A DNA stretch of 64,000 bases, taken from positions 72,768 to 136,767 of the IMG/VR virus record IMGVR_UViG_3300045988_119437; one strand, 5' to 3'. The DNA is from a virus. The position numbers and the translations under genes are program-made. A model generated the notes under the pieces. The model searched no databases and had not been told where the DNA came from. It worked only from the letters and a program-made list of their open reading frames with translations. Of the stretch, positions 3,590 through 63,701 are shown piece after piece (within the stretch, counting starts at the first letter, position 1; each line of letters starts with the position of its first letter).

Positions 3590-3784
3590 ATGGAACTGCT
3601 TACTTTACTTTCAATTATTCCGGATGACATTAGCTTTACGCTTTGTGATTGTAATTCAGGCGAAGAAATTGAATGTTACAATAATAATTCTCTTCTTGAA
3701 ATTTCAGAAGCAAGACGCTACACGGTTGACTTCATCACACCAGAGTTCAATATGCTGATGATTTTTGTGAAAGAAAAAGATTGA
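3590..3784 (+). CDS. hypothetical protein
   Basis: ORF with GAGGTGATGG RBS. Confidence 0.45.
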   Translation: MELLTLLSIIPDDISFTLCDCNSGEEIECYNNNSLLEISEARRYTVDFITPEFNMLMIFVKEKD

Positions 3785-3803
3785 TAAAAGGGAGATTTTA
3801 AAT

Positions 3804-4004
3804 ATGGAAGAGGCAATGGAATATATTGAAGATAAATTTACATTAAGTAGTGGACTTTGTAGTCATATCATATCAGATATTTTATGTTTTTTGAAAAAAT
3901 CTTCTGGTTCTCGAATGGATAAAATCACTCTCCTTAATAATTTACTTAATTCACTTGGTCTTACGATAGAAGAAGAGAAACAGATTATTGATTGGCTCTT
4001 ATAA
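3804..4004 (+). CDS. hypothetical protein
   Basis: ORF with AAGGGAG RBS. Confidence 0.45.
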   Translation: MEEAMEYIEDKFTLSSGLCSHIISDILCFLKKSSGSRMDKITLLNNLLNSLGLTIEEEKQIIDWLL

Positions 4005-4022
4005 TGTAAGGAGATTTTAGAT

Positions 4023-4877
4023 ATGGAAAACTTATATTGCTACGATAATGAAATCATAAAATGGACTTACGGCGATAACCTATGTTGCTTACATATTCAG
4101 CACGACGACGTTGCAGACAATAACCCTCGTTGGTGGGATGACCATGATTCCGTGATGGCTTGTTTCCATTCTCGTTATCGTCTTGGTGATAAGATTGATG
4201 CGAGTACGGCAGAAGAGTTTTGGAACAATCTGGTTTATAAGTATTGTTCTGATGAAGAGATTGTGGATGCTTTAACGTGTATAAAACTGGAAGAGGTATG
4301 TGTGGTTATTGACAACGATAATAGTAGTATTGAAGAAACTCGTTATGCGATTTGTTGTCGTGAAGATCAAGACAATCCTTGGTACACCAATTTGAAATAC
4401 AATGAAATTGCGGTGTATGCTCGTGGCAATTTTTCTATTCGTGATTGTCAGATTCTTCTGGATAAGCATATTGCATGGCTTCCTCTTTGGTTGCGTGACC
4501 ATTCTGGTTTGTCTATGGATTGTGATACACGATTCAAAAGTTCGTGGGACGATAGCAATGTTGGTTGGATTGTGACCGCTGTTACGGATAGTTCGGATAA
4601 TACCAAAAATGAAGCAGAACGAATCATGCGTGATGAGGTAAAGACTTATAGCGATTATATTTCCGGTGAGAACTACGGCTATACGGTTTATCGAGAAGAA
4701 CACGGAGAATGGAAGGAAATTGACAGAGCATTCGGATTTATCGGTTCTGACGTGTTTGAAAACGGTATTGTGTACAGTGTTGGTTACGGTCTCGAAATAG
4801 CATTAAAGGAAGATCGGTGCCGTATTGGTGATGCAGAGAAGATTGTGACCGTTACTTACAGTTTTGATAAATGTTGA
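4023..4877 (+). CDS. hypothetical protein (284 aa)
   Basis: Long ORF with AAGGAG RBS; no recognisable motif. Confidence 0.6.
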   Translation: MENLYCYDNEIIKWTYGDNLCCLHIQHDDVADNNPRWWDDHDSVMACFHSRYRLGDKIDASTAEEFWNNLVYKYCSDEEIVDALTCIKLEEVCVVIDNDNSSIEETRYAICCREDQDNPWYTNLKYNEIAVYARGNFSIRDCQILLDKHIAWLPLWLRDHSGLSMDCDTRFKSSWDDSNVGWIVTAVTDSSDNTKNEAERIMRDEVKTYSDYISGENYGYTVYREEHGEWKEIDRAFGFIGSDVFENGIVYSVGYGLEIALKEDRCRIGDAEKIVTVTYSFDKC

Positions 4878-4896
4878 ATTTTAGGAGGGAAATACC

Positions 4897-5214
4897 ATGG
4901 ATGATAATATGATGGAACGTCAGATTGCTGATTATATGGTGAATTATGGCACTGAAAACACGAATTATGGCACATGGGTGTTTGAGGTCGATGAACTGGC
5001 GAAAAAGTTCAATATTACAGAGAAATGGATTCAGGAACATGAAGACGGTATTATGTCTGAGCTGTATCTCAGAGAAGAAGTAGCTGACGTTGAACGTGAA
5101 TTAAGCGGCAATGATATGACTATCACACTTTTTGATGTGGATTTCTACACCAACTATTGCCATAACTATATTGAAGACGAACAGGAAAAGGATGATGACG
5201 TAAATCAGTATTAG
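4897..5214 (+). CDS. hypothetical protein; paralog of 681..1004; ends at TAG followed by 58 further open codons (to 5391)
   Basis: AGGAGGG RBS; stop is TAG at 5212-5214; same frame stays open and protein-like to TAA 5389-5391. Confidence 0.5.
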   Translation: MDDNMMERQIADYMVNYGTENTNYGTWVFEVDELAKKFNITEKWIQEHEDGIMSELYLREEVADVERELSGNDMTITLFDVDFYTNYCHNYIEDEQEKDDDVNQY

Positions 5215-5394
5215 TTTGCTGAAACTCGTTGGTGTATCGATGACGTTATTGATGCAGCGAAGAAAAAAGGAATTGTATTGACTTCGCAACAAGCTGAGTC
5301 GTGGTGGAAAAAGAACGAAAAGTGGTTTAAGGATACTCTTACTGAATATGGTAATGAGATTCTTTTTAATGCAAATTTTAGTAAGGTATAAGTT

Positions 5395-5631
5395 ATGTGG
5401 TGTGTTATCAAATGTGGTTCTAAAGGTGAAATTTTTGAGCCTGAGTTTTTTCAAAACGAAAAAGAAGTTATGAAATATATCGTGGATGATTCGAAAGAAT
5501 GCCATGCAATGTATTCTGACCTTCCTAATGTTCTGGCTTATTATGATAGTGACGAACTCGAGGCACAGGTTTGGACGGATGAATTTGGTTTCAGATGGAA
5601 AGCATTTGATATTTCTAACAAATTGATGTAA
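5395..5631 (+). CDS. hypothetical protein
   Basis: ORF with AAGG RBS. Confidence 0.5.
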   Translation: MWCVIKCGSKGEIFEPEFFQNEKEVMKYIVDDSKECHAMYSDLPNVLAYYDSDELEAQVWTDEFGFRWKAFDISNKLM

Positions 5632-5646
5632 AAGGAGAGTTTTATT

Positions 5647-5844
5647 ATGAGAATTACTATAAAATATGACATTAAACAAATGACGGAGACGCTTTGCGAT
5701 GTAGCAGGTGTTGAGTATAACCTTGATTTAGAAAATTTGTTGCATTCGCTAGATATTATGGCACAAAATCCTTACAATGCTGATTTTCGTCGTAATGGTC
5801 TTGCTATCATTGCTAAAGTGTGCGAGGAGCTGAGAGAAAAATAA
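5647..5844 (+). CDS. hypothetical protein
   Basis: ORF with AAGGAGAG RBS. Confidence 0.45.
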   Translation: MRITIKYDIKQMTETLCDVAGVEYNLDLENLLHSLDIMAQNPYNADFRRNGLAIIAKVCEELREK

Positions 5845-6038
5845 TGTATTACCATCTTGAATACTCTGTCAGACACTTTATGTACGGCGATACATATAGA
5901 GGGCATGAAGTCTATCCTACAAAAGAGCTGCGTAACGCAGAACTTAACTGGATGAAAATGTGTTACAGCAAGCCGACAGAGCTTGTCTATGCAACGTATG
6001 AAACCGAAACGCTTGGTGAGGATAAGATAATAATATAA
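5844..6038 (+). CDS. hypothetical protein
   Basis: ATG overlaps previous TAA (ATAATG). Confidence 0.45.
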   Translation: MYYHLEYSVRHFMYGDTYRGHEVYPTKELRNAELNWMKMCYSKPTELVYATYETETLGEDKIII

Positions 6039-6257: not shown

Positions 6258-6561
6258 GATTGCAAGAGATTTTCTTTCTAAAATGAATCCTTCTGGATGG
6301 AATGGACGTGGATACAAACCGGATACATTTAATGATAAAGATCAGATTAAATATCATGTAGATGGTCACCCTGAAATTGATGTGGATGTTTATTATGAAT
6401 ATGATGCTGGCGATAATAGCTGGTGGCATTTTTGTGATGCACGTTACAATGCTTCTGGCGATAAAATTCTTGGTGTGTGTAATCCTAATGTTTGGTCTAT
6501 TGATGCGATTGAAGAATCTGCTAAATATTTATTTAGCAAAATGAATATTGAAATTAAATAA
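6244..6561 (+). CDS. hypothetical protein
   Basis: ORF overlapping upstream gene end. Confidence 0.5.
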   Translation: MTAREIARDFLSKMNPSGWNGRGYKPDTFNDKDQIKYHVDGHPEIDVDVYYEYDAGDNSWWHFCDARYNASGDKILGVCNPNVWSIDAIEESAKYLFSKMNIEIK

Positions 6562-6578
6562 AATCGAGGTTTTAGAAA

Positions 6579-6782
6579 ATGGAACGAACTATGAATGATA
6601 AACTCATGGAAGCAGCACAGGTTCTTATTGAAAATGGAATGAGTGCGGATGATGCGTATGTTGCTTTGCAGGCGCAGTGTTATATCCTTTTGGATATTGA
6701 GATCGACGATTATCTCACAGATGAAGATTATGAAGAACTCGAAGATTTTGAAAAGAAACTGAGTGAGACAGAGGAGAAATGA
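6579..6782 (+). CDS. hypothetical acidic protein
   Basis: ORF with GAGG RBS; highly acidic C-terminus. Confidence 0.5.
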   Translation: MERTMNDKLMEAAQVLIENGMSADDAYVALQAQCYILLDIEIDDYLTDEDYEELEDFEKKLSETEEK

Positions 6783-9761: not shown

Positions 9762-9986
9762 ATGATGGTATATGGAAACATAACGTGTAATCGCTGTGGC
9801 ATTACATGGTATGGCCCTAAATGTGGAAAGCTCTATTGTGATAAATGTCGTAAGATAATAAGAAATGAGGCATCCATTCGATGTAAGAACAAAAAGAAAC
9901 ATAAACCAACATTTGTTGAGATTGTAAGAATGGCAGATGCTGAAGGATTATCTTACGGTAAGTATTGTTTGAAGTATGGAGTTTGA
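9762..9986 (+). CDS. zinc-ribbon small protein
   Basis: CNRCG...CGKLYCDKC cysteine pairs. Confidence 0.45.
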   Translation: MMVYGNITCNRCGITWYGPKCGKLYCDKCRKIIRNEASIRCKNKKKHKPTFVEIVRMADAEGLSYGKYCLKYGV

Positions 9987-10845
9987 GGTGAATGTGATGA
10001 GTGCGCTTGAAAACGAAAAGAAAATCGAAAATACTGTTGCTCTTGATTTTTCTGACTACGATTCTTCTAACAAAGAAAAACGTCAGAACGTAGTTAAAAA
10101 GAATTATAGCCTAACTCGTATGGAAGCAAATCATGGGTCAGTTCAGCCAATTAAAGACAAAGAGGATATCAAACGTATTTCAGAATATTTTTGGATTAAA
10201 CGTCAGTACCGCAACTGGTGTTTGTTTAATGTAGGATGTTGCACAGGATTCAGAGCAAGTGATTTGCTTCGTTTGAAGGTTTCTGATGTAGCAGCTACAG
10301 ATATGAATGGAAAGGTTGTGGTGAATTTCAACGCAAAACTTCGTGTTAAGGAAAAGAAAACAAATAAGTATCGCATTCTTAAAGTTCCGGTCCCGGCACT
10401 AAAGTGTATTCAAACTTATATCAATATTGATGGATTGTCTTATGACGATTGGCTCTTCCCGTCTCGGCAAGGCAGTTGGAAGAACTCCATGAGAACAAAC
10501 GGTGGAACAAGCGTGAGTAAATCTGGTGTGTTCCGTAAGTATGATGCGAATCCAAAAGAAATGGGCGATCCGCTTGATGTAGATTCTTTTGGTAGAATCA
10601 TGCGTCAAGTTGGTAAGGAGTTAAATCTTTCTGTACAGCTTGGTTCTCATAGTTGCCGCAAAACTTTCGGATATCAGTTTATTGAATCTCATCCAAATGA
10701 CGTAAAAGCTCTTGCGTGGTTGCAGCATAGTCTGAATCACAGTAGTCAGGCAATTACGCTTCGCTATATTGGTCTGGATGAAGAAGTGGATGATGAATAC
10801 TACTCTGGGATTGATTATGGCGTGGACTGTCATGAAGACTCTTGA
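9976..10845 (+). CDS. tyrosine recombinase (phage integrase family), internal copy
   Basis: GFRASDLLRLK (Arg box), HSCRKTF (His-x-x-Arg box), LRYIG (catalytic Tyr) motifs. Confidence 0.7.
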   Translation: MEFEVNVMSALENEKKIENTVALDFSDYDSSNKEKRQNVVKKNYSLTRMEANHGSVQPIKDKEDIKRISEYFWIKRQYRNWCLFNVGCCTGFRASDLLRLKVSDVAATDMNGKVVVNFNAKLRVKEKKTNKYRILKVPVPALKCIQTYINIDGLSYDDWLFPSRQGSWKNSMRTNGGTSVSKSGVFRKYDANPKEMGDPLDVDSFGRIMRQVGKELNLSVQLGSHSCRKTFGYQFIESHPNDVKALAWLQHSLNHSSQAITLRYIGLDEEVDDEYYSGIDYGVDCHEDS

Positions 10846-17097: not shown

Positions 17098-17424
17098 ATG
17101 CGTGAGAAAAAGGTTTTGGAAATTATACAGGTTGAAAACTTTTTGAAGTACATAAGAAAAAAGCGAGTGTGGGTCTGCTTTATTTGTAATGGTGTGGATG
17201 TTCACATGATCTGCAAGAAGATGAACGATATTGGTGTAGAGACACATGGGATTGTCAAAGGCATTGGATTTTTTGGAAACGAAAGTCATGTTGAGCTGCG
17301 GCAAGAATGCTACGAAGTAAGGAGGGTTGAGTTTAGGCCGGGCGATAAAGAGAAAGCGTATGAGATGATCTTCGATAACACCAGCGTGTTCGTATCAGAG
17401 AATCCAGAGTTGTACGGGCACTAA
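17098..17424 (+). CDS. hypothetical protein
   Basis: ATG after GAGTGGAGGGCGG; preceded by two tandem -10-like boxes (17003-17065). Confidence 0.5.
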   Translation: MREKKVLEIIQVENFLKYIRKKRVWVCFICNGVDVHMICKKMNDIGVETHGIVKGIGFFGNESHVELRQECYEVRRVEFRPGDKEKAYEMIFDNTSVFVSENPELYGH

Positions 17425-17443
17425 AAATATTTTCGAAAACCTA

Positions 17444-17472
17444 TTGACTTCTGTAAAGGTATCCTGTATAAT
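17444..17472 (+). promoter_or_regulatory. consensus sigma70-type promoter (TTGACT-17-TATAAT) carrying the GTATCCTGTATAATATAG motif
   Basis: TTGACT at 17444-17449, 17-nt spacer, TATAAT at 17467-17472; near-identical to the promoter at 42167. Confidence 0.6.
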
Positions 17473-17515
17473 ATAGCTATGGAACGGAGCTACACTATTA
17501 TAGAGGAGAAAGACT

Positions 17516-17935
17516 ATGGACAACAATATTGACCCAAAGGTCGGAGAGGTTTGGTTGGTTGATCTATCCAATGCGACAGGTCATCAGCAGCGCGGTATTC
17601 GACCGTTCGTTGTGACGAGTAACAATAAGCGCAACTTCTTCAGTCCCACAATCAAAGGGAATCCGTTGTCTTCCAGAACATACAAGCGTTCTCCGGTTCA
17701 TGTCCTGCTCTCAAAGGAAGATTGCGATTTCCTAGAGGTTGACAGTATCGTTCTCTGTGAAGAGACTGACACACTTAACAAAGGGCAGTTTATCAAAAAG
17801 CTTGGTGTCTTGTCTGAGCGTCATATGAATATGATCGCAATGGCCAGATGCAAGGATGAACCGTTTTTGATCTCGGCGTTCGTGAGCGGCGTACAACATA
17901 CTATGGAATTTCAGAATTTTGCCGCATTTGCTTGA
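17516..17935 (+). CDS. MazF/PemK-family toxin-like endoribonuclease (no cognate antitoxin seen)
   Basis: GEVWLVDLSNATGHQQRGIRPFVVTS matches the PemK/MazF N-terminal beta-strand motif; own promoter and GGAGGAG RBS. Confidence 0.6.
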   Translation: MDNNIDPKVGEVWLVDLSNATGHQQRGIRPFVVTSNNKRNFFSPTIKGNPLSSRTYKRSPVHVLLSKEDCDFLEVDSIVLCEETDTLNKGQFIKKLGVLSERHMNMIAMARCKDEPFLISAFVSGVQHTMEFQNFAAFA

Positions 17936-17988
17936 TTTTTTATAAGGGTTAATGGTACACTACATATAATAAGAAGGAGTGTGCCATT

Positions 17989-18915
17989 ATGCTTACTGAA
18001 GAAAAGATCAACGCTTTTGCTGAAAAGTATTCTGATAGAAGCGGCGAGTTTGTTATATCGACACTTAACCATGTTATGGACTACGAAGCGGAGTGCGGGT
18101 ATGAGTTATTCGACTTCACAAAAGATGATTTTGTAAAGATGTTTGCCAAATACAATTGGGTAAACTCAAGTCGTTCATTCAGAAATGTGAAATCGATAAT
18201 CACTGGTTATATCAAGAACGAAAATCGTACAAGCATGTATGATTTGGCTGAATTCTCAGAGAGCGATGTGAGTTCAGACAATATGTACGAGGACAAGTAT
18301 TTTGCATCGGTTGATGAGTTTGTTGGTTTCTTAAACAAGTATGAAGAAGCGTATCAGATTCGTATGAATGTGATTGCTGTTTTGTACTGGATCGGTCTTA
18401 CTTCTAGTGAGGTTTCTAATCTAACAATTAACGATGTAGACTTTGAATCTCGTACTGTCCTCGATAGGACTGATGTTGACGCAAGGTTGATGGATATCAT
18501 CAAGCAGTGTTATGAAATGAAACAGTATGATGCGCCCAATATGGGAGGATACAGAACATTTTATGTCATAAATGGTGATTACATTCTTCGTAAAACAGAG
18601 GATAGAACTGGTGTAGACAGCGACCCGAAGATGTCTGTAAATACAATCCATAGTTATTTTGTGAGGCTGAATGACATTCTCGAAAAAAGACATCATACAA
18701 AGATTTTAGATCGAAGACATCTGACCAGAAATGGTGAGTATGTGAAGGTCTACGATTACTGTAAGAGTAATTCAGAGTTCAACCTTGCGGAGCTTAGTTT
18801 CGGAAATGGTAAAAAACCTCTTGCAGACATTATTGGAAGAAAGTGTAGCAAGGTAGCTTACATTAGTTTCCGGCAGGGATACAAGGGCTGGGTCGAATAC
18901 TTCCACAAAAATTAA
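17989..18915 (+). CDS. hypothetical protein (308 aa)
   Basis: ORF behind TATAAT box at 17967 and AAGGAG RBS; weak integrase-like segment LYWIGLTSSEV. Confidence 0.55.
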   Translation: MLTEEKINAFAEKYSDRSGEFVISTLNHVMDYEAECGYELFDFTKDDFVKMFAKYNWVNSSRSFRNVKSIITGYIKNENRTSMYDLAEFSESDVSSDNMYEDKYFASVDEFVGFLNKYEEAYQIRMNVIAVLYWIGLTSSEVSNLTINDVDFESRTVLDRTDVDARLMDIIKQCYEMKQYDAPNMGGYRTFYVINGDYILRKTEDRTGVDSDPKMSVNTIHSYFVRLNDILEKRHHTKILDRRHLTRNGEYVKVYDYCKSNSEFNLAELSFGNGKKPLADIIGRKCSKVAYISFRQGYKGWVEYFHKN

Positions 18916-19049: not shown

Positions 19050-20276
19050 ATGAGAACTTTGCTTCTTTTCCGTGGAGCACCAGGATGCGGGAAGTCCACC
19101 TATATTAAAGAGCATGATCTGGAAAAGTATACGCTTAGTGCCGATACGATTCGCCTTATGTGTCAGGGTGGTCAGGAAACCCCGGCTGGCACAATGGAAA
19201 TCTCTCCCCAGAACGATGATGTTGTCTGGGATATGCTCTTTAAACTGTTGGAGGTTCGGATGTCTCACGGTGAATTTACCGTGATTGATGCAACGAACTC
19301 TAAAACTGTTGAAATCAATCGCTATAAGAATCTTGCAAAGCAGTACAGATACAGAATGTACATCATCGACATGACTGATTTGCCGATTGATGAGTGTAAA
19401 CGGCGTAATGCGCTTCGTGCTCCTCTGAAGCGAGTTCCAGATGCTGCTATTGATAAGATGTATGCGCGATTTGCTACACAGAAGATTCCGTCTGGTGTGA
19501 CTGTACTTTCGTCAGATATAAATGTCCTTGAGAAATTGAACTATGTTCCGCAGGACTTTAGCAACTGGAACAAAATTCATATCATCGGTGATGTACATGG
19601 ATGTTACAGTTGCTTGAAAGAGTACCTTGGTGACCTGAAGGATGATGAACTGTACATTTTTGTTGGTGATTATCTGGATCGCGGTATTGAGAATGTAGAG
19701 ATGTTCAAGTTCCTTTGTGATGTTGTAGACAATAATCGGAAGAATGTAATTCTCCTTGAAGGAAATCACGAACGGTGGCTGAACAAGTGGGGCCATGATG
19801 AACCGGTTCAGAGCGAGGAGTTCGCAAACTACACTCGTCCGCAGCTTTTCAAAGCAGGGATTGACCATAATACGGCTCGTAAGGTTTATTCGAGAGTAGG
19901 ACAGTGCTCCTATTTTGATTACGACGAGAAAAGATACTTCGTTAGCCATGGTGGTTTGAGTTATTTGCCTGAATTTCTACCATTCGTGTCTACTGACCAG
20001 ATGGTAAAGGGTGTTGGTCGCTATCCTGATATGCTAACCGTGGCTGAGTCTTGGGAAAAATCGATGCCGGATAGCTACATTCAGATATTCGGTCATCGAA
20101 ATGTGCAGGATGTTCCTATTGATATGGGGCATCGGTGCTACAACCTCGAAGGAAAAATCGAGTTTGGTGGATATCTCCGTTGCGTGGAACTTGAACACGG
20201 TCAGTCAATCAAATGTGTAGAAACAAAGAATGATGTGTTCCGAAAAGAGGAGTCAAAGACTGAAACTACCGTTTAA
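19050..20276 (+). CDS. polynucleotide kinase-phosphatase (Pnkp-like: P-loop kinase + calcineurin-type phosphoesterase)
   Basis: N-terminal FRGAPGCGKST Walker A; C-terminal GDVHGC, GDYLDRG, GNHE metallophosphoesterase motifs. Confidence 0.7.
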   Translation: MRTLLLFRGAPGCGKSTYIKEHDLEKYTLSADTIRLMCQGGQETPAGTMEISPQNDDVVWDMLFKLLEVRMSHGEFTVIDATNSKTVEINRYKNLAKQYRYRMYIIDMTDLPIDECKRRNALRAPLKRVPDAAIDKMYARFATQKIPSGVTVLSSDINVLEKLNYVPQDFSNWNKIHIIGDVHGCYSCLKEYLGDLKDDELYIFVGDYLDRGIENVEMFKFLCDVVDNNRKNVILLEGNHERWLNKWGHDEPVQSEEFANYTRPQLFKAGIDHNTARKVYSRVGQCSYFDYDEKRYFVSHGGLSYLPEFLPFVSTDQMVKGVGRYPDMLTVAESWEKSMPDSYIQIFGHRNVQDVPIDMGHRCYNLEGKIEFGGYLRCVELEHGQSIKCVETKNDVFRKEESKTETTV

Positions 20277-21260
20277 ATGAAAACTGAGTTCGATAACGCA
20301 GAACTTGTCAGTAAGATGCGTCAAAGCAAATATGTGTTTGAGAAGCGATTCGGAGATATTTCTTCTTTCAACTTCTCTCGTGAAGCATTTTATAAGAAGC
20401 ACTGGGATGAGGTTTCTACCAAAGCAAGGGGATTGTTCATTAACACAAAGACGAATAAGATTGTAGCTCGAAGCTATGATAAGTTCTTTGCGGTCGATGA
20501 GCGGAATGAAACGAGAATTGGAAACCTACAGAACACTTTGAAGTTCCCGGTGACTGCATATCTGAAGGAAAACGGATTTCTTGGCATTGTCTCGTATGAT
20601 GCAGAACAGGATGGTCTGTTCATTGCAAGTAAATCCACTCCTGAAGGGCCTTTTGCAGATATGTTCCGAAAGATTCTCATGGATACGACTTCTGATGAAG
20701 ACCGTAAGAATCTGAAGGAAGTTGCAAAAGAGAATGGTTCCATCATTTTTGAGGTGATTGATCCTGTAAATGATGCTCATATCATCGAATACAAGAAACC
20801 GCACATTGTTTTGCTGGATATTGTTGCGAATGATATGAACTTCAGTGTGATGGATTACGATGATCTGAAGCGTGCTGCTGAAAAGTGTCATTTGCAGATT
20901 AAGGAGAAGGTTAAAATCTTTGAGAGCTGGAGTGAATTCTATCCTTGGTACGAGGGAGTCATGAACGAGAACTATCTGCATCATGGCTTTGAACATATTG
21001 AAGGGTTTGTCCTTCTGGATAGCACGAACTTTATGTTCAAGCTGAAGCTTCCTTACTACAAACACTGGAAGTTTTTGCGTAGTGTTATGCAGAGCGTTCA
21101 AAAGCGTGGCTATTATGAAAATACCGCAAAGTTGTTTACTGCTGAGGATAACCTGTTCTATGGTTGGATGCGTGAGCAACGAGAGAAAGACCAGGAATCT
21201 TTTTGCAAGAAGGGTATTATTCAGTTACGGAATGAATTCTATGAGAATCGGCACGAATAA
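20277..21260 (+). CDS. ligase-like nucleotidyltransferase (putative RNA ligase partner of Pnkp)
   Basis: Start abuts the Pnkp stop (TAAATG); candidate motifs I KENG, IV EGFVLLD, V FKLKL. Confidence 0.45.
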   Translation: MKTEFDNAELVSKMRQSKYVFEKRFGDISSFNFSREAFYKKHWDEVSTKARGLFINTKTNKIVARSYDKFFAVDERNETRIGNLQNTLKFPVTAYLKENGFLGIVSYDAEQDGLFIASKSTPEGPFADMFRKILMDTTSDEDRKNLKEVAKENGSIIFEVIDPVNDAHIIEYKKPHIVLLDIVANDMNFSVMDYDDLKRAAEKCHLQIKEKVKIFESWSEFYPWYEGVMNENYLHHGFEHIEGFVLLDSTNFMFKLKLPYYKHWKFLRSVMQSVQKRGYYENTAKLFTAEDNLFYGWMREQREKDQESFCKKGIIQLRNEFYENRHE

Positions 21261-21329: not shown

Positions 21330-21419
21330 GCCCAAGTGATGGAATGAGGTAGACATGAAGCTCCCAAACAGCTTTGCGTGAGATATCGCGTGCGGTTTCG
21401 AATACCGCCTTGGGCACCA
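21330..21419 (+). tRNA. tRNA-Leu(CAA), type II, CCA encoded
   Basis: Acceptor GCCCAAG/CTTGGGC, anticodon stem AAGCT/AGCTT, loop CCCAAAC, variable arm, T arm GCGGT-TTCGAAT-ACCGC; C33 unusual. Confidence 0.65.
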
Positions 21420-21459
21420 GAGTCCGAATATTCACCTATTAAATACTGGAGGCAAGTTC

Positions 21460-22356
21460 ATGAAAAGAATTGAAAAATTTTCAAAAGAAGAGATCGAGCA
21501 GATTTTTAAAGAGAGCAACAACTGGGCTACTGTGGCTGAGAAACTTGGTTACAGCAAATTCGGAGGAAGCTCTAGGGATGTAATCCAAACATATGCAGAC
21601 GAAAATAATATTGACACTTCTCATTTTACGGGACAAGGTTAGAATAAAGGTAATATTGATTTGACAAGATTTAAACAGGGCGTTCCATTCAAAGGGTTAA
21701 GAGAATCGCTCTTACTCATAAGAGAACATAAATGTGAATGCTGTGGAAACAAGGAATAGATGGGAAAGGAAATTTCGTTAGAAGTTCATCATATTGATGG
21801 AGATAGGCTGAATAATGAGTTATCAAATCTCAAGCTACTGTGTCCTAATTGTCATTCACAAACAGAAAATTATTGCGGGAGAAATATTAAGAGACATAGA
21901 GCTGTATCCGATGAAGAGTTTGTAAAGGCGCTTAAAACATCGAAGTCTATTGGTGAGGCGTTAGGAAAAGTGGGAATAAATTACATAGCTAAAAGCTGGT
22001 ATGAAAAAGCACGAGAACTTATGCTTGAAAATGAAATCAAGTTCCCGAAGAAAGAAACAATACAAAAAGGAAAGAACGAACGCAAAAAGCGCGAGACAAA
22101 ATCTTGCGCAAAATGTGGGAAAGAATTGAGTCCAAGAACAAAAGGGACACTATGCAAAGAATGTCTTTATAGTCTTCCATACAGAAGATCTAAAGGGTTG
22201 CCAGAAAGAAGTCAGCTTGAAAAAGATATCCGTGTTATGTCATTTTCTAAAGTTGGAGAAAAGTATGGTGTAACAGGAACTTCTATTCGTAAGTGGTGTA
22301 AATACTATGGACTGCCTTATAGAAGATCCGATATAAACAATACTAGCAAAGAATAA
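21460..22356 (+). CDS. HNH homing endonuclease with NUMOD-like repeats, interrupted by two in-frame TAG codons (21640, 21757)
   Basis: Single frame reads ...HFTGQG-TAG-NKGN...HKCECCGNKE-TAG-MGKEISLEVHHIDGD...NLKLLCPNCHS; HNH motif spans the second TAG. Confidence 0.6.
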
Positions 22357-22398
22357 TTTCAAAAGAATGAAGCTGTATTTTATACAGCTTCTGTATAT

Positions 22399-22486
22399 GC
22401 CGCAGTGATGGAGTGACATACATTTCCCGCTTAAACCGGGACGCCTGAAACACGGATCGTGGGTTTGAATCCCACCTGCGGCACCA
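22399..22486 (+). tRNA. tRNA-Leu(TAA), type II, CCA encoded
   Basis: Acceptor GCCGCAG/CTGCGGC, anticodon stem TCCCG/CGGGA, loop CTTAAAC, T arm GTGGG-TTTGAAT-CCCAC. Confidence 0.65.
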
Positions 22487-22489
22487 TAT

Positions 22490-22563
22490 CCAGAATGTAG
22501 TGTAATGGCAGCACGCTGCGTTTGGGACGCAGAAGAGCGATTCGAATTCGACATTTTGGACCA
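22490..22563 (+). tRNA. tRNA-Pro(TGG)-like; weak T stem, possible pseudo-tRNA
   Basis: Acceptor CCAGAAT/ATTTTGG, anticodon stem CTGCG/CGCAG, loop TTTGGGA, T loop TTCGAAT; only 3 bp of T stem pair. Confidence 0.3.
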
Positions 22564-22564
22564 G

Positions 22565-22585
22565 TGGAGTATTCCACTTGCTTTT
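22565..22585 (+). terminator. possible terminator hairpin
   Basis: GTGGA-GTAT-TCCAC followed by TTGCTTTT. Confidence 0.35.
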
Positions 22586-22659
22586 CATGAATACCTTCCT
22601 ATTATTCTTGGCTCTCCAAAAAAAACGGAGCAGTAGGACGCAGCAAGCCAAGTTACATA

Positions 22660-22749
22660 ATGAGGGTTCGCCAAGTGGTAAATGGCATCTGGCTTTGACC
22701 CAGACAGCGTGCTTTATAGCCGATCGTCGGTTCGATCCCGACACCCTCA
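22660..22749 (+). tRNA. tRNA-Gln(TTG)-like with an enlarged 21-nt variable region
   Basis: U1-A72 acceptor TGAGGGT/ACCCTCA, D arm TCGCCAAGTGGTAAATGGCA, anticodon loop CTTTGAC, T arm GTCGG-TTCGATC-CCGAC. Confidence 0.4.
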
Positions 22750-22754
22750 ATTTA

Positions 22755-22844
22755 TGGACACGTGATGGAATCGCAGACATGAAAGATTTAGGCTCTTTTG
22801 CCGTTAACAACGGTGTGCCCGTTCAAATCGGGTCGTGTCCACCA
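22755..22844 (+). tRNA. tRNA-Leu(TAG), type II, CCA encoded
   Basis: Acceptor GGACACG/CGTGTCC, anticodon stem AAAGA/TCTTT, loop TTTAGGC, variable hairpin CCGTT-AAC-AACGG, T arm CCCG-TTCAAAT-CGGG. Confidence 0.65.
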
Positions 22845-22947
22845 TTATCAACTTATGGTTGCGTACCGTTTGTTGATCTCCTTTGACCACTATTATTCCC
22901 AGCTCGCCAGTGATGGTGCAGTAGTGTTTTGTAAGCTGGGTTTTCAT

Positions 22948-23022
22948 GCGGCGGTCGTACAACGGCTAGTACATCAGCCTTCCAAGCTGAGGATGAGGTT
23001 TCGACTACCTTTCGCTGCTCCA
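22948..23022 (+). tRNA. tRNA-Gly(TCC), CCA encoded
   Basis: Acceptor GCGGCGG/TCGCTGC (two G-U pairs), D stem GTAC/GTAC, anticodon stem TCAGC/GCTGA, loop CTTCCAA, T arm GAGGT-TTCGACT-ACCTT. Confidence 0.65.
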
Positions 23023-23174
23023 ATCTCGTATGGGTAGGATCTTTGGCGGTCAGATCTGGCCGCGCCTGTGCGAGATACCACCCCGAAAGGGGCGAGATAT
23101 AGGAAATGTGCATCGCTGTTATTCCTTCCTCGTCTATATGATATAGATGCAATAGTGTTTTATAAGGAAGGTGC

Positions 23175-23210
23175 CCAGTTGAATAGTTGCAGCTATTTAA
23201 CTGGTTTTTA
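23175..23210 (+). terminator. rho-independent terminator-like hairpin ahead of tRNA-Met
   Basis: CCAGTT...AACTGG stem followed by TTTTTA. Confidence 0.45.
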
Positions 23211-23211
23211 T

Positions 23212-23292
23212 GGGACATTATCTCAATTGGTTAGAGAACTCAGCTCATAACTGAGCATATGTATCACGGTTCAAGTCCGACATGTCCCACCA
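23212..23292 (+). tRNA. tRNA-Met/Ile2(CAT)-like, CCA encoded
   Basis: Acceptor GGGACAT/ATGTCCC, D stem TCTC/GAGA, anticodon stem CTCAG/CTGAG, loop CTCATAA; T stem only 3 bp. Confidence 0.5.
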
Positions 23293-55015: not shown

Positions 55016-56028
55016 TTGAAAGGATGTGATTTTATAGACTCAAAAGATGTGTTAAAAACCGAATCTGAGCCAGTAGGTTATATTTATATTACAGAAAATT
55101 TAGTTGATGGAAGAAAATACATAGGCCAACATCATTCAAAAGAATTCGATCCATATTATAAAGGATCTGGAAAAATATTAAAACAGGCATTTGATAAATA
55201 TGGATTTAGTAACTTTAAAACGACGATTTTGGAATGGTGCTACTCGGATGAGGAACTAAACGAAAAAGAACGTTATTGGATAAAAGAAAACAATGCAGTA
55301 GAAGATAGATTATTTTACAATATTTTGCCGGGTGGTCTTGGTGTTCAGATGTTTGGGCCAGACAATCATATGTATGGAAAGCACCATACAGAAGAAGCAA
55401 AAGAAAAAATGTCAGATGCTTTGAAGGGGAAAATGGCAGGAGAGAATAATCCAATGTATGGAGTCCATCTTACATACACTCAAGAACAAAAAGATAAAAT
55501 GAGCGAACGAAACAAACGAATGGGGAGATGGGTAGGAGAAGATAATCCTTGGTATGGAAAACCATCACCATTTAAAGGGAAAAAACGTAGTGAAGAGTGG
55601 TGTAAGAAATCTTCTGAAGCTCACAAAGGAATTCACCCTAATATTTCAGAAGAAACAAGAGCTCGTTTAAGTAAAATGCGAAGCGAATGGATGTCTGGAG
55701 AGAAAAACCATTGGTATGGGAAAAGAGGGGCAGAACTTCCATGGTATGGGGAAAAAAGACACCGGAAGAGATAGAAAAGCTAAGACAAGCAAGTTTAGGA
55801 AAGAGAAAAGGAAAAGATAACCCCGCATCTAAGCCTATCTATTCAATGGACGGAAGGTATTTGTTTTGGACAATACAAGAGGTGGCTGACTTTTTAGGAA
55901 AGACATACGGGCAAGCAAGACATGCAATCGACCATGAAAAACAAGTTGACTGTAACGGAGAACAAATAATTTTCACAAGAGACAAATCTAAAGTAAAGGA
56001 GAAGAATTTTCAGGATGAACTACGCTAA
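55016..56028 (+). CDS. GIY-YIG homing endonuclease with NUMOD3 repeats; frameshifted at A6 run (55752-55757)
   Basis: GYIYITENLVDGRKYIGQH...YKGSG GIY-YIG motif; repeated NxxYG(K/V)xH(T/S)EE modules; the -1 frame continues the repeats and the C-terminal DNA-binding region. Confidence 0.7.
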
Positions 56029-62534: not shown

Positions 62535-63701
62535 ATGATAAGACGTAAAGATAATAATGGCAAAGTTTTAAAAGACGGCGAGAGCCAGAGAAAGGATGGG
62601 AGATACCAATATAGATGGACAAACAAACTTGGAAAACGCTCAATAATATACGCCACTTCACTTAAAGAATTGAGAGAAAAAGAAGCTGAAATCCAAGAAA
62701 AACTTAATTTGGGTATAACGTCTACTTCAAAAATCACAGTGTACCAATTAGCAAAAAGACATCTCGAAGAAACAAAACTTACTATTAGGCCAAGCAGCTA
62801 TAAAACAAAATCGCAGAATTTGAAAATCTTTCAGAATCACCTAATTGGGGAAATGAATGCAACTGATATTTTAGTGCGCGATGTAAAACAATTTGCACGA
62901 GAATTGGATAACGAAGGATATTGTTATACAACAATCAGAGATGTCATGTCTTTAGCTAGACCGGCATTTCAAGAAATGTTTGATGAGAATATAATTCCTA
63001 GAAATCCATTCGTTTTTAAATTAAATACAGTTGTCAAATGTGACTCAAAAGAAAAAGAAATATTAACAGAAGAGCAGTATCAAAATCTGATCAAGTTCAT
63101 GAAATCTAGTCGAGTATATAAAAGGCATGTTGGCATGGTGATGCTTTTGCACGAGACCGGACTTCGAGCAGGAGAATTATGCGGGCTAACAAAAAAGTCA
63201 TTTGATTTTGATAACAACACTGTTACTATATCTCATCAGATGGTGTACGATGGAAAGAGCGGCGGGCTGTATTTAGCACCTACAAAAACAGAAAGTGGGA
63301 TAAGGACTATCCCATTATCTAAAGACGCCATCATTGCTTTTGAAGAAGCGATAAAACAACGTCCGATTGTAAAAGCAGAGAGAATAATAGATGGGCAAGC
63401 CGACTTCTTGTTCATAGCAAAAACTGGAAGGCCCTATACGAATAAAAACCTTGTTAGAATTTTTGAAGGACTAATCAAAGCCTATAATAGTTGCCATGAT
63501 GAACCATTGCCTGAAGTCACTGCCCATAGTATGCGCCACGAATATTGTACACGGCTTGTCAAAGCCAAGATGGATGTTAAATCGGTTCAATACCTCATGG
63601 GACATTCGTCGCCCGATATAACCTTGAAAGTGTATACTCATATCTTAAAAGAAGAGACCGAAGCAGAGGCAATCAAACAGTTTAATAGGATTGTTTCCTA
63701 A
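62535..63701 (+). CDS. int: tyrosine integrase (Tn916/phage Int family) with N-terminal arm-binding domain
   Basis: N-terminal RKDGRYQYRWT; catalytic LRAGELCGL, HSMRHEY, LKVYTH. Confidence 0.8.
   Translation: MIRRKDNNGKVLKDGESQRKDGRYQYRWTNKLGKRSIIYATSLKELREKEAEIQEKLNLGITSTSKITVYQLAKRHLEETKLTIRPSSYKTKSQNLKIFQNHLIGEMNATDILVRDVKQFARELDNEGYCYTTIRDVMSLARPAFQEMFDENIIPRNPFVFKLNTVVKCDSKEKEILTEEQYQNLIKFMKSSRVYKRHVGMVMLLHETGLRAGELCGLTKKSFDFDNNTVTISHQMVYDGKSGGLYLAPTKTESGIRTIPLSKDAIIAFEEAIKQRPIVKAERIIDGQADFLFIAKTGRPYTNKNLVRIFEGLIKAYNSCHDEPLPEVTAHSMRHEYCTRLVKAKMDVKSVQYLMGHSSPDITLKVYTHILKEETEAEAIKQFNRIVS

Follow-up and report, generated by a model that had tools for sequence, protein, structure and literature searches.

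Sequence comparison suggests that the phage family represented by IMG/VR virus record IMGVR_UViG_3300045988_119437 uses the stop codon TAG as a rare extra tryptophan (Trp) codon. We analysed positions 72,768 to 136,767 of this record (64,000 nucleotides; hereafter, the window), which form the early/replication half of the genome in a gut phage family that is abundant in IMG/VR, with contigs of ~125 to 140 kb. At issue are an HNH homing-endonuclease gene with two in-frame TAG codons and a second, small gene with one. An original prediction, made from the letters of the window, had proposed that these TAGs are read through with glutamine (Gln). The first part of that idea agrees with our results, which point to decoded TAGs in genes that are not dead; the second part does not, as the TAGs align with TGG in relatives. 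Suppression of TAG by insertion of Trp is, on this evidence, the probable explanation of the two TAGs in the HNH gene. The features concerned are as follows.

21460 to 22356, + strand: free-standing HNH homing-endonuclease gene, 298 codons including two TAG codons predicted to be read as Trp.
21640 to 21642, + strand: in-frame TAG, codon 61 of the HNH gene, in the motif HFTGQG-W-NKG.
21757 to 21759, + strand: in-frame TAG, codon 100 of the HNH gene, in CCGNKE-W-MGK, between the CxxC knuckle and the LEVHHIDGD core.
4897 to 5391, + strand: small 164-codon gene that contains a single in-frame TAG, an uninterrupted 164-amino-acid (aa) open reading frame (ORF) in relatives.
5212 to 5214, + strand: in-frame TAG, codon 106 of the small gene, a TGG-to-TAG change of a single lineage.

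The TAGs at 21640 and 21757 are the sole interruptions of the HNH frame, as had been claimed, and the conceptual full-length product has thousands of homologues, the best of them a 298-aa database protein (E = 5e-188), so the open frame is not a matter of chance. The match to the Pfam HNH model (PF01844; E = 7e-6, above the cut-off) covers residues 92 to 136 and spans the second TAG; the HNH_3 model also matches the product, PF13392 being the other HNH family named. Both the HNH core and its flanking Cys pairs are present in the window's gene, and C92, C95, H110, H111, N123, C128, C131, and H132 are invariant or nearly so in the homologue alignment.

The columns at which the TAGs fall are near-invariant for Trp in distant homologues. 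Specifically, in an alignment of 16 homologues, the codon-61 column holds W in all distant homologues, with H in one, and the codon-100 column, within the motif CGNxE-W-xGK, holds W across the wider family. At the DNA level, codon 61 is TAG in the window and in the related loci L001, L002, L005, and L007, and TGG in L003, while codon 100 is TGG in both L002 and L003, and TAG in L001, L005, L007, and the window; translations show TAG at both codons in L004, L006, L008, and L009 as well. Across the HNH copies of ten assemblies (53 to 99% identical), TAG occurs at five columns (22, 61, 100, 139, and 180), each of which is TGG in other copies (139 is also TAT). The HNH gene has the highest TAG density, at two to four of its five to six Trp-family columns. 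The original prediction had named CAG, changed by C-to-T, as the simplest source of these codons and comparison with relatives as one way to decide; as the aligned relatives have TGG, never CAG or CAA, the TAGs are instead former Trp codons that arose by G-to-A.

The same holds for the small gene, whose N-terminal 95 aa are paralogous to ORF 681-1004. It had been described as ending in TAG at 5214 with the frame open to 5391, a description borne out by the single 164-aa ORF of relatives. There, the codon-106 column reads TGG in 35 cases, TAT in 16, TAC in one, and TAG in one (L075, 99.8% identical), with no CAG. All three TAGs of the window, thus, align with TGG, and we propose that the TAG at 5212 is a recent TGG-to-TAG example of the same kind as those in the HNH gene.

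A candidate decoder is encoded outside the window. In relatives, the genes upstream of the window switch strand, and a second tRNA cluster then stands just before the terminase genes; in it, downstream of tRNA-Ser(UGA), lies a tRNA with anticodon CUA, or a tRNA-Trp(CCA), or a tRNA-Lys(UUU) with a CUA tRNA, or none of these. ARAGORN and a regular-expression (regex) search recovered at least five sequence types of CUA tRNA, and type D, which follows tRNA-Lys(UUU), was missed by ARAGORN and found by regex (Rfam tRNA model, 45.3 bits). The idea that TAG goes with the tRNA-Lys(UUU) slot was abandoned, given that the type D suppressor sits directly downstream of that tRNA. A pattern scan matched CUA tRNAs in more than 114 IMG/VR contigs, while in 185,579 bacterial species genomes it gave only two matches, both unrelated, and the CUA tRNA family is therefore phage-specific. 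A suppressor of this family is expected to read GCGCCYRT..CUCUAAA..GGGCGUGCCA. The acceptor stem, GCGCCYRT/GGGCGT, is common to the CUA tRNAs and the phage tRNA-Trp(CCA), with GGACGT in the latter, and so are the discriminator G73 and the anticodon loop CUCYAAA, which reads CUCUAAA in the CUA tRNAs and CUCCAAA in the tRNA-Trp. The tRNA-Trp(CCA) of other genomes occupies a similar place in the cluster, and for four of the five suppressor types (B, C, D, and E), the nearest tRNA is the phage tRNA-Trp, at 68 to 79% identity. In the cloverleaf, 98% of cells are paired and compensatory changes occur at 17 of 21 pairs; covariation and G73 are as in tRNA-Trp, and the anticodon (CUA, not CCA) is not. 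These sequences, thus, look like functional tRNA genes derived from tRNA-Trp. Pyrrolysine was rejected as the inserted residue, as the label "tRNA-Pyl" given by ARAGORN follows the anticodon alone and the CUA tRNAs are ordinary cloverleaves related to tRNA-Trp.

The presence of the CUA tRNA is polymorphic within the family (44 of 77 fetched contigs) and tracks in-frame TAGs in late genes. In the large terminase of relatives, TAG occurs at W63 in 26 of 80 loci and at W56 in three, and in the portal gene, it occurs at W338 in two. For the 77 contigs, a fetched sample of related contigs tabulated after the regex search for CUA tRNAs, 31 had both the tRNA and a TAG at one of these three positions, 13 had the tRNA only, none had a TAG only, and 33 had neither (Fisher P = 1.7e-11). 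In other words, terminase or portal TAGs were found in 31/44 contigs with the tRNA versus 0/33 without it, and the TAG-bearing terminase occurs together with four suppressor types. A second survey reached another 10 kb into the late genes and covered 428,113 aligned codons. All of its in-frame stops were TAG, save that six loci had TAA at codon 170 of the terminase; we take this TAA to mark the edge of the insertion by which the gene is split in some relatives. Eight of its TAG sites were at Trp columns (terminase 56 and 63; 147 of a 523-aa protein; 69 and 89 of a 341-aa protein; 188 of a 329-aa protein; and 365 and 492 of an 815-aa protein), and three single-genome sites were elsewhere. Here, 30 contigs had both CUA tRNA and TAG, six the tRNA only, one a TAG only, and 20 neither (P = 3e-9), and in the sole contig with a TAG and no intact tRNA (111249), the suppressor is truncated just past the anticodon. 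The HNH gene and the late genes together have ~13 recurrent or conserved TAG/Trp sites, to which single-genome sites in early genes are added. Further, a CUA tRNA is present in each of the six IMG/VR contigs whose HNH gene is full-length and contains TAG. One of them, contig 103228 (L237, 925-999), has an HNH gene that is 99% identical to that of the window, and its CUA tRNA lies ~40 kb from that gene, at a point that corresponds to ~19 kb before window position 1.

Two of the terminase genes that are split deserve mention in their own right, L178 (16693-19836) and L302 (reverse strand, 3653-5898). Their inserts differ: the former has an intervening 329-aa ORF (17281-18270), and the gap in the latter has only a 101-aa ORF. 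These could be intron or homing-element insertions.

The window itself almost never uses TAG to end a gene, as the original prediction had noted. Our census took in 118 + strand ORFs (non-overlapping, 60 aa or longer), of which 69 end in TAA, 45 in TGA, and four in TAG. The four are the HNH and 4897 read-through cases, a spurious ORF over tRNA genes (22798-23037), and an ORF (55016-55774) whose end is out of frame within a frameshifted GIY-YIG endonuclease gene. This leaves zero convincing TAG terminators in ~115 window genes, compared with TAG making up 12.4% of off-frame stop triplets (binomial P ~2e-7). The GIY-YIG gene, listed below, had been counted as an exception to this rule; its TAG is present, but three-frame translation places it out of frame, as a consequence of the frameshift and not as a selected stop. 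No counterpart of this insertion was found in any fetched relative or in IMG/VR.

55016 to 56028, + strand: GIY-YIG/NUMOD3 endonuclease gene (Pfam), with a frameshift near 55720-55750 and an out-of-frame TAG at 55772.

In a relative, one late gene (L370, 18928-19554) ends in NPE-TAG, followed by eight codons and then TAG-TGA, and might have a genuine TAG terminator with back-up stops. As a sense codon, TAG is sparse in the window, with three in-frame occurrences in ~20,000 codons (64 kb), or under 1% of Trp codons, so that the standard code costs almost no coding density and causes no marked fragmentation of genes.

One alternative is that Gln is inserted, either through a reassignment like that of genetic code 15 or through near-cognate read-through, such that TAG would have come from CAG and would be decoded by a Gln-accepting suppressor or by the tRNA-Gln(UUG) of the window. 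Among phages with a code other than that of their host, TAG to Gln is the sole amber reassignment to have been reported (Borges et al. preprint), and Q is what public gene callers already put at these TAGs. Further, U35, G73, and the weak 1-72 pair of the CUA tRNAs could attract glutaminyl-tRNA synthetase (GlnRS), and a few single-genome TAGs do align with Q. However, at the recurrent sites of the HNH, terminase, portal, and 341-aa late genes, 10 of 10 TAGs are at Trp columns, even though CAG is more than twice as frequent there (46 CAG versus 20 Trp-type codons); were CAG and TGG equally likely sources, the probability of this outcome would be ~6.5e-6. Insertion of Gln is disfavored because CAG-to-TAG changes, silent under Gln, should dominate, yet they are absent from the recurrent sites. 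The suppressors are, moreover, paralogous to tRNA-Trp(CCA) and not to phage tRNA-Gln. It is this descent, together with the TAG sites at Trp columns, that leads us to Trp as the inserted residue. Regarding a tRNA-Gln as decoder, the tRNA genes around the HNH gene are these.

21330 to 23292, + strand: tRNA array around the HNH gene, in the order Leu-CAA, [HNH], Leu-UAA, Pro-UGG, Gln-UUG, Leu-UAG, Gly-UCC, Met-CAU (ARAGORN, Rfam).
22661 to 22750, + strand: tRNA-Gln(UUG), 90 nucleotides, with an enlarged variable region (ARAGORN; Rfam tRNA, 52.8 bits).

The aberrant tRNA-Gln(UUG), suspected earlier as a misreader of UAG, is a real gene with ~16 to 19 extra variable-region bases, and it takes the same form in L004, L016, and L017. 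It is not needed as the decoder of the TAGs, because other relatives with a normal tRNA-Gln (71 to 74 nucleotides) exist, those with the 74-nucleotide form keep the TAG-bearing HNH gene, and so does L008, in which no tRNA-Gln was called in the 20.9 kb around that gene. Near-cognate reading of two to four UAGs per gene would, in addition, probably leave almost no product. Together, these observations make Gln unlikely as the inserted residue. They also bear on public databases: the closest database proteins (P0001 and P0004-P0009) carry Q at the TAG positions of the HNH gene, while the DNA of P0004 and P0005 has TAG, from which it follows that the gene callers had used code 15, and these seven entries are probably mistranslated at Trp positions.

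We consider it similarly improbable that the HNH and 4897 genes are decaying pseudogenes, in which the TAGs would be ordinary nonsense codons arising by TGG-to-TAG. Homing-endonuclease genes often decay, and remnants of the HNH gene are truncated in L016 and L017, while the copy in L008 has a C-terminal frameshift and the GIY-YIG gene of the window is frameshifted. Sporadic nonsense changes of all kinds also occur in the family, and the TAG at 5212, seen in one lineage only, would yield a 105-aa product that matches the length of the paralogue 681-1004. Nonetheless, the HNH frame is intact across 35 to 47% amino-acid divergence, its only stops being TAGs that all fall at Trp columns; in-frame TAA or TGA codons and frameshifts are otherwise absent from the copies, L008 with its frameshift being the exception, and six of the seven full-length copies read are free of any other stop codon. 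Beyond the second TAG, nonsynonymous differences per site (pN, 0.20 to 0.38) are far below the saturated synonymous ones (pS, 0.66 to 0.89). The whole frame is therefore under selection at the protein level and is probably translated through the TAGs. Relaxed selection, mixed stop types, and frameshifts, which mark pseudogenes, do not characterize the HNH gene, and its catalytic and zinc-binding residues are conserved as described above. Finally, the TAGs of the essential terminase and portal genes, in dozens of genomes, are of the same kind and occur only with the CUA tRNA.

Another proposal is that the HNH frame holds independent small ORFs, with termination and reinitiation giving a 60-aa N-terminal product and a 198-aa product that starts at ATG 21760. 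An ATG does directly follow the second TAG, AAGGA lies a few bases upstream, and the ORF 21760-22356 contains the HH...N...H core. However, this Met is a residue of the conserved motif E-W-[MLF]-G-K, where relatives have L or F, and reinitiation would strand the CxxC half of the zinc site on a 32-aa fragment. Given that other HNH copies have TAGs at codons 139 and 180, within the 198-aa part, we regard this explanation as very improbable. A sequencing or assembly artefact has a negligible chance of accounting for the data: these are metagenome assemblies, in which single-genome stop codons do occur, but the same TAGs recur in independent Logan, ENA, and IMG/VR assemblies.

Several points weigh against suppression by Trp, both in the window and in the family. 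First, the CUA tRNA, which the original prediction had thought worth seeking beyond the window, is present in the second cluster of relatives, but the 64-kb window has none by ARAGORN, Rfam, regex, or a custom covariance model; the latter, built from suppressor and Trp tRNAs and run with filters off, found only known tRNAs in the window (six of seven). The link between the window's TAGs and a CUA tRNA, thus, rests on relatives. Second, in hosts that have a GlnRS, this enzyme too would be favored by U35, G73, and a weak 1-72 pair, which count among its identity features, and the tRNA-Trp-derived amber suppressor su7 of Escherichia coli is charged largely with Gln, such that the CUA tRNA sequence alone cannot decide between charging with Trp and charging with Gln. 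Third, some of the bias toward Trp sites may be mutational, because TGG-to-TAG is a single transition. Fourth, our survey of the early region shows sporadic, single-genome TAA, TGA, and Gln-to-TAG events, so ordinary nonsense mutations or assembly errors exist in the data; for this reason, the TAG at 5212, confined to one lineage, could be either of these, the stop there giving a product of about the size of its paralogue. Fifth, both association tests were made without phylogenetic correction, and the second tied loci to contigs by exact sequence overlap. Finally, contig 111249 (L171), in which the suppressor is truncated, still has TAG at codon W89 in the gene for the 341-aa late protein, and this may reflect a recently disabled system or a defective phage. 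In both L171 and L168 (13541-13576), a type B suppressor tRNA ends right after the anticodon.

Beyond the genes with TAGs, the window has all of its genes on one strand, including those for DnaE, a RecD2-like helicase, ligase, NrdD, methylases, and two integrases. The identity of DnaE to its counterpart in Clostridium phage Amboise is 47%, and that of the family terminase to those of SPbeta-like phages is 25 to 30%, so that the family is only distantly related to known phages. The HNH/tRNA region had no megablast match among cultured phages, and a search for hosts or lysogens with the terminase gave no match in the 185,579 bacterial species genomes. Most related IMG/VR contigs stop three to ~270 bases beyond the integrase gene at 62535-63701, which hints at a genome end that they share or at a provirus boundary introduced by the pipeline; the second integrase-like gene is at 9976-10845.

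The HNH gene is free-standing and mobile, its presence and insertion site varying among relatives: Leu-CAA and Leu-UAA flank it in L004-L006, as they do in the window, but its neighbors in L007 and L009 are Leu-UAG and Gly, and a scan of family contigs in IMG/VR found only six full-length copies and two remnants. Within the surrounding array, tRNA-Leu(CAA) (21330-21419) and tRNA-Leu(UAG) (22756-22844) are called by ARAGORN and are below the Rfam tRNA gathering score, and position 33 of the former seems, by eye, to be C where U is usual; both may be degenerate or unusual. At the end of the array (23212-23292), the window has tRNA-Met(CAU), where L001, L003, L016, and L017 have tRNA-Ile(UAU) at the matching place, the two anticodons being one base apart. 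Directly upstream of the array (19050-21260) are a kinase-phosphatase (AAA_33 + Metallophos, Pnkp-like) and an Rnl1-type RNA ligase. Their resemblance to the T4-style tRNA repair pair would suggest pressure from a host anticodon nuclease. L008 also has a phage-borne transfer-messenger RNA (tmRNA) gene (6357-6739), with the tag peptide ANNNSYRCAA.

The mechanism that we propose for decoding TAG as Trp is that of stop-codon-recoded gut phages, although alignment with Gln and large-scale recoding do not apply here. As in gut phages of code 15 (TAG = Gln; crAss-like and Lak phages, among others), the CUA tRNA is phage-encoded, here as seen in relatives, and in-frame TAGs occur in late or essential genes, such as the terminase, while the early region avoids TAG. 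Unlike in those phages, TAG aligns with Trp rather than Gln, and its use is sparse (three codons in 64 kb) and polymorphic within one family. The parallel with code-4 phages (TGA to Trp, tRNA-Sup(UCA)) is the capture of a stop codon for Trp by a suppressor tRNA, but the stop codon differs, and UCA keeps C35, whereas CUA alters the middle anticodon base. That base (position 35) is a major identity element for tryptophanyl-tRNA synthetase (TrpRS). The change from CCA to CUA in a tRNA-Trp is the same as that in E. coli su7 (supU), although su7 is a laboratory/host mutant that is largely mischarged with Gln, while the codon evidence here points to Trp. The assignment TAG = Trp itself is that of genetic code 32, from the Balanophoraceae plastid; this is a genome-wide reassignment in a parasitic plant, without evolutionary connection to the phage family. 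Two features of such an assignment, interchange of TAG and TGG at conserved Trp columns and the avoidance of TAG as a terminator, are found here.

Among recoded phages, only TAG to Gln and TGA to Trp have been observed (Borges et al. preprint), and later surveys of phage recoding consider tables 15 and 4 only. We found no codon-level report of TAG-to-Trp recoding in phages in the literature, the only hint being the isotype model of Kienbeck et al. 2024 (PMC10879173), which called 19.4% of 180 phage suppressor tRNAs "Trp"; code 32 is mentioned there. Those Trp-isotype suppressors are likewise from gut phages and could include the family studied herein. However, they stand beside theta ribozymes and are known from isotype prediction only, whereas the evidence here is at the codon level, and no ribozyme or other RNA family was detected by Rfam (E up to 0.01) beside the suppressors tested.

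The course of events could have been as follows. A duplicated phage tRNA-Trp would have become an amber suppressor by a change of its anticodon from CCA to CUA, expressed from the second tRNA cluster at the head of the packaging/late-gene block, outside the window, and the window's own genome presumably carries such a tRNA. If host TrpRS charges it with Trp, UAG in phage messages would be read as Trp in competition with release factor 1. Because the suppressor is present, we propose, TAG would be purged as a terminator and TGG-to-TAG changes would be tolerated, and these would then drift in or be selected. The outcome would be a sparse scatter of TAGs, only a few in each genome, that replace Trp codons of the large terminase, portal, and head-region genes and, at the highest density, of the HNH gene. 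A full-length, active HNH product would be made only if both UAGs are read as Trp, and this dependence would make the nuclease strictly conditional and lower its dose. Suppressor dependence of the HNH and late proteins may have a regulatory role in timing or dose, the alternative being drift that is tolerated. More tentatively, and with doubts that outweigh our confidence, this polymorphic amber-to-Trp reassignment may act as a genetic lock, in which the suppressor and the TAG-bearing terminase make the synthesis of late proteins and the nuclease conditional on expression of the phage's own tRNA and make recombinants incompatible. If so, recombinants with a TAG allele and no tRNA would be inviable, which would be a barrier inside the phage population.

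In practice, gene callers that translate these TAGs as Gln under code 15, or split the genes, probably put wrong terminase, portal, and endonuclease entries for this abundant phage group into public protein sets. The CUA tRNAs may also be candidate orthogonal suppressors of the Trp type. In surveys of recoded phages, TAG to Gln and TGA to Trp are the only changes reported, and the explanation offered there turns on which synthetases of the host lend themselves to hijacking. A family that reads TAG as Trp, if true, would broaden that view, with a decoding tRNA that is visibly derived from tRNA-Trp and a system that is present in some genomes only. In such a family, the early stages of codon capture could then be studied as a natural series, from the loss of the stop codon through the gain of the suppressor to the spread of the codon into essential genes.

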